Part shown: one piece after another, positions 1 to 6,000 of the stretch
How positions within the stretch are numbered: position 1 is the first letter of the stretch
How the letters are laid out: each line of letters begins with the position of its first letter
Origin: Escherichia coli
GTDB lineage: Bacteria; Pseudomonadota; Gammaproteobacteria; Enterobacterales; Enterobacteriaceae
Reading direction: 5' to 3' (one strand)
DNA length: 8,214 bases
Assembly: GCF_003334765.1 (NCBI RefSeq)
Contig: NZ_QOWT01000060.1
Program-made: the position numbers

Positions 1-3000
1 AAATCGGCTCAAACATGAAGAAATGAAATGACTGAGTCAGCCGAGAAGTATTTCCCCGCTTATTCGCACCTTCCTTAGTACTATTTTTGGTGATAAATAT
101 ATCCTTACTTTGCTAAATTCTATGCGAAATATGGAGGGTAATAAAGATAGCCGTATTAATAAAAATGTCGTCGTTCTGGCTGGAAATCATGAAATCAATT
201 TTAATGGTAACTATACTGCACGACTAGCAAATCATAAACTCTCTGCCGGTGATACGTATAACTTAATTAAAACGCTCGATGTTTGTAATTATGACTCAGA
301 AAGGCAAGTTTTAACCAGTCATCACGGAATAATAAGAGATGAAGAAAAAAAATGTTATTGTCTCGGTGCTTTGCAGGTTCCATTTAATCAGATGAAAAAT
401 CCTACTGATCCTGAGGAATTAGCCAATATTTTTAATAAAAAACATAAAGAACACATGGATGATCCTCTATTCCATCTAATCCGAAGCAATACTTTGAAAC
501 CCACACCTGTATATGCTAATTATTTTGATAACACTACTGATTTCAGACCAGCACGTGAACGTATCTTCATATGTGGGGAGACACTCAAAGGTGAAGACCC
601 CAGCAAATACATTAGACAAAAATATGGGCATCATGGGCCCGGGGTAGATCATAATCAACAATTTGATAATGGTATTATGGGGCTAAATTCCCTGAAGGAA
701 GCACGTGATAAAAATAATAAAATAATTTATTCCTCAGGGCTTAGTTGTTTTCAACCACATTAAAACTCCATGAATACGGTGGTATGTCTTTTTAATCCTG
801 CCAGTATTTCATAGGTTTTCTTAATCGATTGTAGAGGCATGTTCTGATGACGCCTCTACAATCTTTAGGGACTTTCTCTGCTATGAGATAAGAAATTTCA
901 TATTATGCTTTGAGGCTGAATGATTTGTGCAAAATATAATTATTTTCCCATCGAACATGAGGTGTATGTCATAAGATAAAATGTTAACTATGTATTCCTC
1001 GCGGTAAATAATATGAGGTAAAATATGAAAATTGGAACTGTGGCAGGCACTAACGACAGTACAACGACAATCGCAACAAATGATATGGTGCAAGAGCATG
1101 TTACCAACTTCACTAAAGAACTGTTTGGGTATATTGCAAATGGTATAGGTGATGATATATCAAGTATTGCCAGGACAATGCTCGGTGAGGTTGTGGAAAA
1201 AATAGATGATTGGCAAATAGAACGGTTCCAACAATCTATTCAAGATGACAAAATTTCATTTACCATACAAACGGATCATTCAGAAAAATATAGTATGCTA
1301 TCGGGCATGCGTGCTCATATTCTACGTAGGAATAATAATTATCAGTTTATTGTGACAATTAATAGCAAAAATTACGGTTGCTCTCTTGATAATACCGATG
1401 TTAATTGGTGCAGTATTGTTTATTTACTTAATAATATGACAGTAAATGATAATGCTAATGATGTTGCAGTTACTGAGTCGTACAAACCCATCTGGAACTG
1501 GAAAATATCGCAATATAATGTATCTGATATTAAATTCGAAACAATGATAAAACCCCAGTTCGCTGACAGAATCTATTTCTCCAATTGTTTACCCGTTGAT
1601 CCCACAAGTACCAGACCAACCTATTTTGGTGATACCGATGGCTCAGTCGGTGCAGTTTTGTTCGCGCTTTTCGCAACGGGACATTTGGGAATCATGGCTG
1701 AAGGAGAAAATTTCCTTAGCCAGTTGCTTAATATAGAAGATGAAGTTCTCAACGTATTGCTAAGGGAGAACTTTAATGAGCAACTTAACACTAATGTTAA
1801 TACAATAATCAGTATCCTGAACAGAAGAGACATTATTTTAGAAAGTCTTCAGCCTTATTTAGTTATTAATAAAGACGCTGTGACGCCATGTACGTTTCTG
1901 GGCGACCAAACCGGCGATCGATTTAGCAATATCTGTGGTGATCAATTTATCATCGATTTGTTAAAACGCATAATGAGTATCAATGAAAATGTTCATGTAT
2001 TAGCTGGAAATCATGAAACGAATTGCAATGGTAACTATATGCAGAACTTCACGCGTATGAAACCACTCGATGAGGATACCTACTCTGGGATAAAAGATTA
2101 TCCTGTATGTTTCTATGACCCCAAATACAAAATAATGGCAAATCATCATGGGATAACTTTTGATGATCAGCGAAAACGTTACATTATAGGACCGATAACA
2201 GTCTCTATTGATGAAATGACCAATGCTCTCGATCCGGTCGAATTAGCGGCAATTATCAATAAAAAGCATCATGCTATAATTAATGGCAAAAAGTTTAAAA
2301 CTAGCCGGGCTATCTCTTGTCGATCCTTTAATCGTTATTTTTCTGTTTCGACAGATTACAGACCTAAACTTGAAGCACTATTAGCATGTTCACAAATGTT
2401 AGGTATAAATCAAGTTGTTGCACATAACGGAAATGGTGGAAGAGAACGCATAGGCGAAACGGGGACAGTTTTAGGTCTTAACGCCCGTGACAGTAAACAT
2501 GCTGGAAGAATGTTCAGCATGCATAATTGCCAAATTAACCCTGGTGCAGGGCCTGAGATAACCACTCCCTGGAAGTCTTACCAGCATGAAAAAAACAGAA
2601 ATGGACTTATGCCTTTGATTAGAAGGCGCACAATGTTACAGCTCTGAACCATAGACAACATGAATATTAATGTTACTATCTGGTTGAGACTGTTGATAAA
2701 ACGTAAAAAGGAATGCTCTGTTCCTGCAACTGAACAGGCGTGAAACGCTATCCAACAGGATGGATACCGTTTTGTCAGCCAGTTTTATAGATCACACTTA
2801 TGAGTATGCGTGTTTCATTTACGGCCAGGAATGCTGATGATGACAACATTACTACCCGTTTTCACTAAGCCTTCCCCGTTGGCGCTCAATGCTCTGCGCG
2901 CTGGTCGTATTTGCCGTTTCCTTCTTATCCCGGATGGAAGAATCCGCTGAACGTCGTTCGGCGGCAGTTGTAACACGCGTCGTTTGCTTACAGGGATTAT

Positions 3001-6000
3001 GGCGGGTCGATTATGGATAAGAGTAAGCGCCATCTGGCGTGGTGGGTTGTCGGGTTACTCGCGGTGGCGGCTATCGTGGCGTGGTGGCTGTTGCGCCCGG
3101 CAGGTGTGCCGGAAGGCTTTGCTGTCAGTAATGGGCGCATTGAAGCGACGGAAGTGGATATTGCCAGCAAAATTGCCGGGCGTATCGACACCATTCTGGT
3201 GAAAGAAGGCCAGTTTGTTCGCGAAGGTGAAGTGCTGGCGAAGATGGATACTCGCGTGTTGCAGGAACAGCGACTGGAAGCCATCGCGCAAATCAAAGAG
3301 GCACAAAGCGCCGTTGCTGCCGCGCAGGCTTTGCTGGAGCAACGACAAAGCGAAACTCGTGCCGCACAGTCGCTGGTTAATCAACGCCAGGCAGAACTGG
3401 ACTCCGTAGCAAAACGTCATACGCGTTCCCGTTCACTGGCCCAACGAGGGGCTATTTCTGCGCAACAGCTGGATGACGATCGCGCCGCCGCTGAGAGCGC
3501 CCGAGCTGCGCTGGAATCGGCGAAAGCTCAGGTATCGGCTTCTAAAGCGGCTATAGAAGCGGCACGCACCAATATCATTCAGGCGCAAACCCGCGTCGAA
3601 GCGGCACAAGCCACTGAACGGCGCATTGCCGCAGATATCGATGACAGCGAACTGAAAGCCCCGCGTGACGGACGCGTGCAGTATCGGGTTGCCGAGCCAG
3701 GCGAAGTGCTGGCGGCAGGCGGTCGGGTGCTGAATATGGTCGATCTCAGCGACGTCTATATGACTTTCTTCCTGCCAACCGAACAGGCGGGCACGCTGAA
3801 ACTGGGCGGTGAAGCCCGGCTGATCCTCGATGCCGCGCCAGATCTGCGTATTCCTGCAACCATCAGTTTTGTCGCCAGTGTCGCCCAGTTCACGCCAAAA
3901 ACCGTCGAAACCAGCGATGAACGGCTGAAACTGATGTTCCGCGTCAAAGCGCGTATCCCACCGGAATTACTCCAGCAGCATCTGGAATATGTCAAAACCG
4001 GTTTGCCGGGCGTAGCGTGGGTGCGGGTGAATGAAGAACTTCCGTGGCCTGACGACCTCGTGGTGAGGTTGCCGCAATGACGCATCTGGAACTGGTTCCC
4101 GTCCCGCCTGTCGCGCAACTGGCGGGCGTGAGCCAGCATTATGGAAAAACCGTTGCGCTGAACAATATCACTCTCGATATTCCGGCCCGCTGTATGGTCG
4201 GGCTGATTGGCCCGGACGGCGTCGGGAAGTCGAGCTTGTTGTCGTTGATTTCCGGTGCCCGCGTCATTGAACAGGGCAATGTGATGGTGCTGGGCGGCGA
4301 TATGCGCGACCCGAAGCATCGCCGCGACGTCTGCCCGCGCATCGCCTGGATGCCGCAGGGGCTGGGCAAAAACCTCTACCACACCTTGTCGGTGTATGAA
4401 AACGTCGATTTTTTCGCTCGCCTGTTCGGTCACGACAAAGCGGAGCGGGAAGTGCGAATCAATGAGCTGCTGACCAGCACCGGGTTAGCACCGTTTCGCG
4501 ATCGTCCGGCAGGGAAACTCTCCGGCGGGATGAAGCAAAAACTTGGGCTGTGCTGCGCGTTAATCCACGACCCGGAACTGTTGATCCTTGATGAGCCAAC
4601 AACGGGGGTTGACCCGCTCTCCCGCTCCCAGTTCTGGGATCTGATCGACAGTATTCGCCAGCGGCAGAGCAATATGAGCGTGCTGGTCGCCACCGCCTAT
4701 ATGGAAGAGGCCGAACGCTTCGACTGGCTGGTAGCGATGAATGCCGGAGAAGTGCTGGCAACTGGCAGCGCCGAAGAGCTACGGCAGCAAACGCAAAGCG
4801 CTACGCTGGAAGAAGCATTTATAAATCTGTTACCGCAAGCGCAACGCCAGGCGCATCAGGCGGTAGTGATCCCACCGTATCAACCTGAAAACGCAGAGAT
4901 TGCCATCGAAGCGCGCGATCTGACCATGCGTTTTGGTTCCTTCGTTGCCGTTGATCACGTTAATTTCCGCATTCCACGCGGGGAGATTTTTGGTTTTCTT
5001 GGTTCGAACGGCTGCGGTAAATCCACCACCATGAAAATGCTCACCGGACTGCTGCCCGCCAGCGAAGGTGAGGCGTGGCTGTTCGGGCAACCGGTTGATC
5101 CAAAAGATATCGATACCCGCCGTCGGGTGGGCTATATGTCGCAGGCGTTTTCGCTCTATAACGAACTCACCGTGCGGCAAAACCTTGAGTTACATGCCCG
5201 TTTGTTTCACATCCCGGAAGCGGAAATTCCCGCAAGAGTGGCTGAAATGAGCGAGCGTTTTAAGCTCAACGACGTTGAAGATATTCTGCCGGAGTCATTG
5301 CCGCTCGGCATTCGCCAGCGGCTTTCGCTGGCGGTGGCGGTGATTCATCGCCCGGAGATGTTAATCCTCGATGAGCCTACTTCTGGTGTCGATCCGGTGG
5401 CGAGGGATATGTTCTGGCAGTTGATGGTCGATCTCTCGCGCCAGGACAAAGTGACTATCTTCATCTCCACCCACTTTATGAACGAAGCGGAACGTTGCGA
5501 CCGCATCTCACTGATGCACGCCGGAAAAGTGCTTGCCAGCGGTACACCGCAGGAACTGGTTGAGAAACGCGGAGCCGCCAGTCTGGAAGAGGCATTTATC
5601 GCCTATTTGCAGGAAGCGGCAGGGCAGAGCAACGAAGCCGAAGCGCCGCCCGTGGTACACGACACCACCCACGCGCCGCGTCAGGGATTTAGCCTGCGCC
5701 GTCTGTTTAGCTACAGCCGCCGCGAAGCGCTGGAACTGCGACGCGATCCAGTACGTTCGACGCTGGCGCTGATGGGAACGGTGATCCTGATGCTGATAAT
5801 GGGTTACGGCATCAGTATGGATGTGGAAAACCTGCGCTTTGCGGTGCTCGACCGCGACCAGACCGTCAGTAGCCAGGCGTGGACACTCAACCTCTCCGGT
5901 TCCCGTTACTTTATCGAACAGCCGCCGCTCACCAGTTATGACGAGCTTGATCGTCGGATGCGTGCGGGCGATATCACGGTGGCGATTGAGATCCCGCCCA

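Follow-up and report, generated by a model that had tools for sequence, protein, structure and literature searches.

In the tnaC-tnaAB operon, a short leader open reading frame (ORF) controls the access of Rho to the transcript, and the leader stop codon lies shortly before the termination zone. The Rho utilization (rut) site of tna is adjacent to the tnaC stop codon or follows it, and is masked by a ribosome that tryptophan stalls on a conserved peptide. The trpL, hisL and leuL attenuators combine a translated leader ORF with an RNA hairpin over the leader stop codon and rely on intrinsic terminators. The described system closest to the one considered here is mdtU (ydgV)-mdtJI of Escherichia coli (PMC7815308), in which a long 5′ untranslated region (UTR) with a translated upstream ORF (uORF) of about 35 codons precedes an exporter operon, a Term-seq 3′ end lies past the uORF and the reporter is Rho-sensitive. 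Here we describe the leader of the E. coli yhiI-rbbA-yhhJ operon, which occupies the 365-bp gap between yhiJ and yhiI in an 8214-bp stretch of DNA (the window, to which all positions refer). This gap probably works as a cis-acting, Rho-dependent attenuator of the operon, built on a translated uORF named yhiY.

All of the listed features of mdtU-mdtJI recur in the yhiI leader, and both uORFs were found in the same profiling screen. In mdtU, however, spermidine is the inducer, induction is lost when the start codon is mutated, and at least 17 genera share the conserved C-terminus (PMC7815308). The conservation of yhiY across genera is confined to the start region and does not reach the C-terminus, and the literature searched gave neither an inducer nor a mutant of yhiY, nor anything specific on an inducer of rbbA or yhiI. 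Unlike tnaC, yhiY has the C-rich tract inside the ORF and no evident conserved arrest peptide. With trpL, hisL and leuL it shares a hairpin (H2, see below) over the stop codon, but H2 lacks a U-tract, the published intrinsic-terminator score of 2.14 falls short of the threshold of 3, and inspection of the yhiY translation revealed no run of regulatory codons. The short transcript of the Salmonella yhiI leader described as ‘sRNA6’ (PMC2916834) agrees with the occurrence of premature 3′ ends in this orthologous leader, although it comes from another species with a short leader of the ancestral type, and its 3′ end was predicted, not mapped.

Because the yhiY gene, the promoter prediction, the 3′ ends and the Rho dependence have already been published or annotated, the finding is known in outline, and the gap is a largely known, fairly ordinary regulatory leader of the yhiI-rbbA-yhhJ exporter operon. 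What our analysis adds is modest: conservation of the uORF start region and not of the peptide, the helices P1, H1 and H2, the C-rich tract inside yhiY, and a lineage-specific structured insert with an abundant 3′ end.

The yhiY uORF and Rho in the yhiI leader

BLAST searches and RefSeq feature tables identify the window as the yhiL'-yhiJ-yhiY-yhiI-rbbA-yhhJ region. A 651-bp query across the gap matches 5413 of 5,426 complete E. coli genomes, with yhiJ, yhiY and yhiI as the features under the match; at least 80% of the query is covered in 4280 of them, and identity is 100% in one strain and 99.8% in K-12 BW25113. The first-pass annotation of the window reported a 365-bp intergenic region with a shift from AT-rich to GC-rich DNA. 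The ORF list returns the same gap (2648–3012), and the GC content in 200-nt windows indeed rises from ~0.40 (0.395–0.405 at 2501–2800) to ~0.58 (0.575–0.59 at 2901–3200). The region is intergenic only as far as large ORFs are concerned, since RefSeq annotates the 37-codon yhiY within it.

The yhiY product is MMTTLLPVFTKPSPLALNALRAGRICRFLLIPDGRIR. The ORF has the same orientation as yhiI, stops 62 nt upstream of the yhiI ATG and is preceded by the Shine–Dalgarno (SD) sequence AGGA (2827–2830), 6 nt before its AUG. Ribosome profiling with Onc112 and retapamulin led Weaver et al. to yhiY (ORF9 of that study), with initiation placed at the second of three adjacent AUGs, which corresponds to window 2837. 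The overall count of that study, as distinct from its listing by gene, gives 36 of 38 chromosomally tagged candidates (sequential peptide affinity, SPA, tag) as visible by western blotting. In proteomics work of 2025, top-down, data-independent acquisition and parallel reaction monitoring mass spectrometry (MS) all picked up YhiY, with an estimate of about 1000–3000 copies per cell. The SD sequence and start codon, the initiation peaks, the product seen by MS, the position in the 5′ UTR and the presence in orthologous leaders together identify yhiY as a translated uORF.

The 3′ ends mapped by Term-seq (Adams et al., PMC7815308) were placed on the window through the 61-nt sequences in their table, and three of them fall in the leader (Table 1). 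The end at 2970, 43 nt before the yhiI ATG, has a Rho score of 3.34 (read-through with bicyclomycin), is listed as ‘significant Rho termination region: Yes’ and carries the tag ‘uORF’, whereas its intrinsic-terminator score is below the threshold (PMC7815308). In the same study, a yhiI reporter was increased more than 2-fold in the rhoR66S mutant, yhiY-yhiI was named a candidate uORF-dependent element, and direct RNA sequencing (DirectRNA-seq) with and without bicyclomycin revealed a second Rho region inside yhiI, at MG1655 position 3630055 (approximately window 3560), with a Rho score of 5.1. The published data thus show the increased read-through upon Rho inhibition or mutation that characterizes a Rho attenuator, in a fusion that included the yhiI ORF. 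Since the reporter comprised the 5′ UTR together with the whole of yhiI, it does not on its own assign the effect of rhoR66S to the leader. An attenuator of the trp/his type, relying on an intrinsic terminator, was considered and rejected: the scan found no intrinsic terminator on the + strand within 2400–3200, the published score is too low, and H2 is followed by CAGUUGUAA and not by a U-tract.

Within the leader, C clearly exceeds G only at 2836–2935 (40-nt windows), with a peak of 0.38 C and 0.15 G at 2846–2885. YC dinucleotides are densest at 2846–2965, and the start of yhiI is strongly G-rich. Judged by this base composition, the C-rich, G-poor tract inside yhiY, 60–120 nt upstream of the 2948 and 2970 ends, would serve as the rut site.

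The proposed sequence of events is as follows. The sigma-70 RNA polymerase would start at about 2686 from an extended −10 promoter directly behind the yhiJ stop codon. Ribosomes initiate at the yhiY AUG, read the 37 codons and stop ahead of yhiI, and Rho would end a large share of the transcripts just after yhiY and again inside yhiI. As the sole sequence of the Rho-loading type lies inside yhiY, we propose that ribosomes on yhiY cover the tract and permit read-through. When initiation at yhiY is lowered, the tract would become exposed, Rho would load and terminate transcription before or within yhiI, and the operon would be off. One candidate brake on yhiY initiation is a conserved hairpin, P2, which would hold the start codons and be stacked on the helix P1. 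In this scheme, we infer that the C-rich tract is the rut site, in which direction translation acts, and whatever part P1 or P2 may play. The proposal is that yhiY acts in cis, as a leader ORF, and not via its peptide. If translation of the uORF and Rho control the operon in cis, a linked regulator gene is unnecessary; the first-pass annotation had seen no cognate regulator in the window, and no transcription factor gene is present among its ORFs and annotations.

The three 3′ ends at 2788, 2948 and 2970 lie 2, 8 and 6 nt after predicted helices, as would be the case if terminated transcripts were trimmed as far as a protective stem. The same distances are those expected of exonuclease trimming as such. 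A plain promoter with a long unregulated leader, whose 3′ ends are decay intermediates at hairpins and whose Rho sensitivity is ordinary polarity inside yhiI, would also agree with a Rho-sensitive reporter that included the ORF and with the strong Rho region located there. We nevertheless regard such an arrangement as quite unlikely: the end 43 nt before yhiI falls in a significant Rho termination region, and the spacing between promoter and leader block and the uORF start, both conserved family-wide, argue for a function.

Promoter and putative transcription start of the operon

An operon promoter and a long 5′ leader were expected in the gap, which contains both, the promoter 5 bp past the yhiJ stop codon and a leader whose probable start gives it a length of 327 nt. 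The first-pass annotation had found no convincing sigma-70 −35/−10 pair by eye; the consensus scan does recognize one, TAGACA-16-TACTAT with a TG upstream of the −10 (2652–2679), which agrees with the consensus at 9 of 12 positions and is the sole promoter-like site on the + strand. Shuffled sequence yields a mean of 1.2 such sites, so that one match is at chance level and the scan by itself proves nothing; support for the promoter comes from the literature and from conservation.

The catalogue of constitutive promoters obtained by genomic SELEX (systematic evolution of ligands by exponential enrichment; gSELEX) with the RpoD holoenzyme gives identical hexamers for yhiI-rbbA-yhhJ, and the holoenzyme binds the yhiJ-yhiI spacer in vitro (PMC3946193). 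For the analysis of conservation, which the first-pass annotation had suggested, orthologous loci were collected by a YhiI search, with one genome per species, in Escherichia, Citrobacter, Pseudocitrobacter, Salmonella, Klebsiella, Raoultella, Kluyvera, Hafnia and others. The motif T(A/G)GACA-16-TGnTA(G/C)TAT is found upstream of yhiI in 23 enterobacterial species, Hafnia included. The −10 hexamer is TAGTAT in most of the other species, the 16-nt spacer is retained in nearly all, and the promoter keeps a fixed distance from the conserved leader block across species, the K-12 type of E. coli excepted.

The forward primer used by Adams et al. to clone the whole yhiI 5′ UTR opens with GAGACTGTTGATAAAACG, which corresponds to window 2686 (PMC7815308). 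From the design of this primer we infer that transcription of yhiI starts at about 2686. In Salmonella Typhimurium, where ‘sRNA6’ is a processed fragment of the yhiI 5′ UTR, the start determined by 5′ rapid amplification of cDNA ends agrees with the predicted promoter (PMC2916834). As to further regulators, the FlhDC and RpoH gSELEX peaks in this area lie inside genes, and a genomic SELEX study of the LysR-type regulator PgrR (YcjZ) has yhiI among the in vitro targets (PMC5934670).

The first-pass annotation had named transcription of yhiI solely from within yhiJ as the case that would speak against a promoter in the gap. Expression of yhiI chiefly through transcripts that enter from yhiJ or from farther upstream would agree with the scan, which found no terminator-like site on the + strand between the two genes. 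However, the in vitro binding of RpoD holoenzyme to the spacer, with the hexamers given, the 5′ UTR beginning at 2686 in the work of Adams et al., and the presence of the same promoter in strains and genera that are without yhiJ and have the divergent yhiM upstream speak against this explanation, which appears very improbable, although some read-through from yhiJ may occur.

Table 1. Features of the yhiJ-yhiI gap and its surroundings, and uORFs of orthologous leaders. Positions are those of the window; Term-seq values are mean reads in lysogeny broth (LB) at the given optical density (OD).
Feature	Position or size	Strand	Basis or remark
yhiJ	1025–2647	+	ORF list, RefSeq
−35 hexamer TAGACA of the yhiI-rbbA-yhhJ promoter	2652–2657	+	Consensus scan, RpoD gSELEX, conservation
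Extended −10, TGt + TACTAT (hexamer 2674–2679)	2671–2679	+	Scan, RpoD gSELEX, conservation
Putative transcription start (G)	2686	+	7 nt past −10; cloning primer of Adams et al.
5′ structured module, yhiJ-carrying E. coli only	2686–2788	+	Folding; Term-seq end at 2788
3′ end, MG1655 3630827	2788	+	LB OD 0.4: 321,364; LB OD 2.0: 643,233
Near-invariant 52-nt block (upstream region, SD, AUGs, first 6–7 yhiY codons)	2805–2856	+	Alignments, Enterobacteriaceae
Long-range helix P1, 5′ strand UGCGUGUU	2807–2814	+	RNAalifold, single-sequence minimum free energy (MFE) fold
Hairpin P2, stacked on P1	2815–2819/2839–2843 and 2823–2825/2833–2835	+	RNAalifold
yhiY, 37 codons	2837–2950	+	RefSeq coding sequence WP_001296785.1; translation
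C-rich, G-poor tract, candidate rut site, inside yhiY	2846–2935	+	Base composition
Hairpin H1 in the last yhiY codons	2917–2925 with 2932–2940	+	RNAalifold; 3′ end 2948 is 8 nt past the hairpin
Hairpin H2, 9 bp, with the yhiY stop UGA (2948–2950) in the 5′ arm	2944–2952 with 2956–2964	+	RNAalifold; 3′ end 2970 lies 6 nt downstream
3′ end, MG1655 3630667	2948	+	LB OD 2.0: 98,749
3′ end, MG1655 3630645	2970	+	LB OD 0.4: 27,479
Long-range helix P1, 3′ strand AACACGCG	2972–2979	+	RNAalifold, single-sequence MFE fold
yhiI, HlyD-family adaptor, first gene of yhiI-rbbA-yhhJ	3013–4080	+	ORF list, RefSeq
rbbA (yhhJ next)	begins at 4077	+	RefSeq
uORF, Escherichia	37 codons		
uORF, Escherichia sp. E1V33	45 codons		Frame-shifted
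uORF, Citrobacter, Pseudocitrobacter, Salmonella	45–46 codons		
uORF, Klebsiella/Raoultella group (with Enterobacter sp. 10-1)	78–98 codons		Extends beyond the yhiI ATG in another frame; region about −170 to +130 with respect to yhiI
uORF, Kluyvera	3 codons (MTT-stop)		Leader of only ~127 nt

Outside the leader, the window begins (1–763) inside an intact yhiL-like gene of the YhiJ/YhiL family, which is frameshifted in K-12 BW25113, and at its other end (~8101–8214) runs to the edge of an opposite-strand ISEc1-family transposase gene (yhhI). The yhiL and yhiJ sequences have a 63-nt stretch in common, with 79% identity (153–215 and 1977–2039).

Conservation and folding of the leader

The 52-nt block around the yhiY start shows hardly any variation from Escherichia to Klebsiella and Kluyvera, synonymous sites included, and lies 21–22 nt after the −10 in every species except the K-12-type E. 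coli. The MMTT start is present in the leaders of Escherichia, Citrobacter, Pseudocitrobacter, Salmonella, Klebsiella, Raoultella and Kluyvera, and MMTT(L/F)(L/I/V) is the only part of the peptide common to all groups. Beyond it, the uORF varies widely in length (Table 1). In the Citrobacter freundii group, a 1-nt indel puts the conserved ‘FLLIPDG’ nucleotides outside the MMTT frame, which stops merely 4 nt later. These nucleotides, still conserved, are now in the frame of an upstream AUG (MSMRVSF...), which runs for 57 codons and ends in ‘FLLIPDG’, the C-terminus of E. coli YhiY. A conserved C-terminal arrest peptide was looked for in these leaders and not found, as the C-terminus is kept in part of the clade only: the C. 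freundii group and Escherichia sp. E1V33 have it in a shifted frame, and in the Klebsiella group it differs or overlaps yhiI.

In Escherichia, the ratio of nonsynonymous to synonymous substitution rates (dN/dS) is about 0.3–0.7 for yhiY and 0.02–0.04 for yhiI, a 10–20-fold difference based on small numbers, and the dS of yhiY is below that of yhiI, likewise from small numbers. The shifts in uORF length and frame, the conservation of the start region and the dN/dS values suggest that initiation at the yhiY site and the underlying RNA are under selection, rather than the protein.

YhiY could still be a small protein acting in trans, for example as a modulator of the YhiI-RbbA-YhhJ transporter in the manner of AcrZ, KdpF or MgtS, with the leader as the 5′ part of a yhiY-yhiI-rbbA-yhhJ operon. 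In favour of this are its detection in intact form by top-down MS at the copy number given above, co-transcription with a membrane transporter, and the fact that all changes seen in Escherichia in the codons of the first 13 and the last 15 residues are synonymous. On the other hand, only the first 6–7 residues are conserved outside Escherichia, where the uORF spans from 3 to 98 codons, the frame shifts in the C. freundii group and in E1V33, and dN/dS far exceeds that of yhiI. Additionally, NCBIfam holds no model for YhiY, and inspection of the translation showed no hydrophobic, transmembrane-like stretch. On balance we consider a trans-acting YhiY unlikely.

A second frame, MSMRVSFTARNADDDNITTRFH, at 2800–2868 on the + strand overlaps the yhiY start; it has 22 codons, is likewise without an NCBIfam model, and appears conserved (MRVSF.AR.ADDD.I), Klebsiella included. 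This apparent conservation is probably due to the invariance of the nucleotides. In E. coli E423, an IS1A is inserted inside yhiY (locus 2292–3098, with homology to the window from ~2853) and the annotation gives rbbA as a pseudogene, with a stop codon inside it; the operon therefore appears to be decaying in this strain.

For Hafnia, Providencia, Proteus and Morganella, alignment scores with the leader block were no better than those of shuffled sequence. Hafnia alvei has the promoter TAGACA-16-TGtTAGTAT, with the same hexamers as the short-type E. coli leaders (locus 2710–2950), followed by an unrelated 50-codon uORF that ends 52 nt before yhiI, and by a T-rich run, TTTTTTGTTTTT. The terminator scan made no call at this run, and folding did not show the Hafnia leader to be unusually structured.

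RNAalifold was applied to 17 sequences from Escherichia, Citrobacter and Salmonella for H1 and H2 and to 24 leaders for P1 and P2. In H1 and H2 taken together, 96.5% of the alignment cells can pair, against 29–60% when the partner strand is slid, and three pairs show two-sided changes. H2 by itself reaches 96.7%, with two such pairs, and the basal pair of H1 varies between UG, AU and UA. The long-range helix P1 is kept in all 24 leaders, with 100% of the cells pairing against 19–58% for slid partners; three of its pairs vary as A/G opposite U and one as U-A/U-G/C-G. Hairpin P2 is predicted to have the yhiY SD in its loop and the start codons in its 3′ arm. The single-sequence MFE fold also gives P1, H1 and H2.

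At 2989–2996, 17 nt before the yhiI ATG, lies the GGA-containing motif ACAGGGAU, which is invariant in Escherichia, Citrobacter and Salmonella and has AUGGAAC at the equivalent position in Klebsiella. The motif resembles the CsrA-binding consensus. In the same stretch (2991–3001), AGGGA and, 3 nt further on, an out-of-frame AUG (2999) are located upstream of the yhiI start. This AUG is probably not functional, as it is replaced by ACG in the C. freundii group and in Salmonella. The sequence GAUUAUGG occurs twice near the yhiI start, at 2995–3002 and 3009–3016.

Such conservation at the nucleotide level raises the question of whether the leader is chiefly an RNA element, that is, a structure on P1/P2 that binds a ligand, a protein or a small RNA, with yhiY translation as a read-out or as an incidental feature. 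The near-invariant block with its conserved synonymous sites, the retention of P1 in 24 of 24 leaders with U-A/U-G/C-G variation, the conservation of the ‘FLLIPDG’ nucleotides despite the change of frame and the invariant GGA motif are all in its favour. However, Rfam gave no match at E≤1 over the whole window, and for 2640–3040 a relaxed search (E≤10) yielded a single, irrelevant match with an E-value of 4.8, so that neither gathering nor relaxed thresholds support a described family. The overall fold, moreover, does not go beyond shuffles, covariation is weak, and no ligand or partner is known. A leader of this kind is thus a doubtful explanation in our view.

Several observations weigh against the attenuator proposed above. 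YhiY accumulates as an intact protein, which also fits a role in trans, and the purely synonymous changes in its C-terminal 15 residues may leave room for a peptide-level role within Escherichia. The start at 2686 is derived from a cloning primer and not from a table of transcription start sites. The rhoR66S effect could arise, wholly or partly, from the Rho site inside yhiI (~3560), and Adams et al. list the link between yhiY translation and yhiI expression only as a candidate. Concerning the structures, the covariation of P1 is weak, being mostly A/G opposite U and equalled by 37 of 500 shuffles; P2 is without covariation evidence, as all of its pairs are invariant; and the fold of the entire conserved leader is not more stable than those of shuffled sequences (z +0.12). 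A hairpin that would sequester the yhiI SD (2981–2988 with 3001–3009) was rejected as a conserved feature, since just 74% of the cells can pair, covariation is absent and shuffled sequences perform equally well.

The 5′ module of yhiJ-carrying E. coli and its significance

Two types of leader occur in E. coli. In strains without yhiJ and yhiL, the divergent yhiM lies upstream, and the promoter TAGACA-16-TAGTAT is separated by 22 nt from the conserved block. This arrangement agrees with that of the other genera, and the short leader is therefore taken as ancestral. In yhiJ-carrying E. coli, the distance from the −10 to the block is 126 nt, owing to a 104-nt insert. The corresponding segment (2680–2796) is present once per genome in 4283 of the 5426 E. 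coli genomes (79%), essentially the same set as the yhiJ carriers, and is absent from yhiJ-less E. coli and from the other genera compared. A repeat or mobile element was considered as the source of the insert and rejected, given the single copy per genome, the lack of a phage match and the lack of a second copy in the window; the ‘plasmid’ matches were mislabelled chromosomes only.

The yhiM-yhiY spacer of yhiJ-less E. coli contains, upstream of the promoter, a microsatellite of the heptamer TCATTTA, a tandem repeat of variable length with about 20 copies in strain DCE7 (locus ~2640–2785) and about two in MS15046 (locus ~2745–2765).

From the putative start onwards, the insert folds into a Y-shaped module with a free energy of −36.1 kcal/mol (z −4.7). 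Its closing stem pairs 2686–2703 with 2768–2786, and the abundant 3′ end at 2788 is located 2 nt beyond. The stability of the module and the abundance of this end suggest that a 5′ leader RNA of about 103 nt probably builds up in cells of the K-12 type.

A more far-reaching reading can be offered only tentatively. The yhiY start region may constitute a translation-sensing RNA switch, in which P2 and P1, the latter clamping the region upstream of the yhiY SD to the spacer 33 nt before yhiI, would set the access of Rho for an exporter that includes the ribosome-associated ATPase RbbA. In yhiJ-carrying E. coli (79% of the genomes), the insert would add a very stable Y-shaped module between promoter and leader, accumulating as an abundant RNA of about 103 nt (2686–2788) that has been neither named nor studied.

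The apparently empty intergenic DNA thus holds an annotated micro-gene and, probably, a Rho attenuator, and scans guided by large ORFs alone misread such regions. The yhiI-rbbA-yhhJ operon encodes a poorly understood ATP-binding cassette exporter, and the anatomy of its leader provides cheap mutational targets on the way to the inducing signal: the promoter, the uORF start within its predicted hairpin, P1, the C-rich tract, and H1 and H2. The E. coli leaders with and without the 104-nt insert offer, in addition, a natural comparison for the effect of the insertion on the output of the operon.

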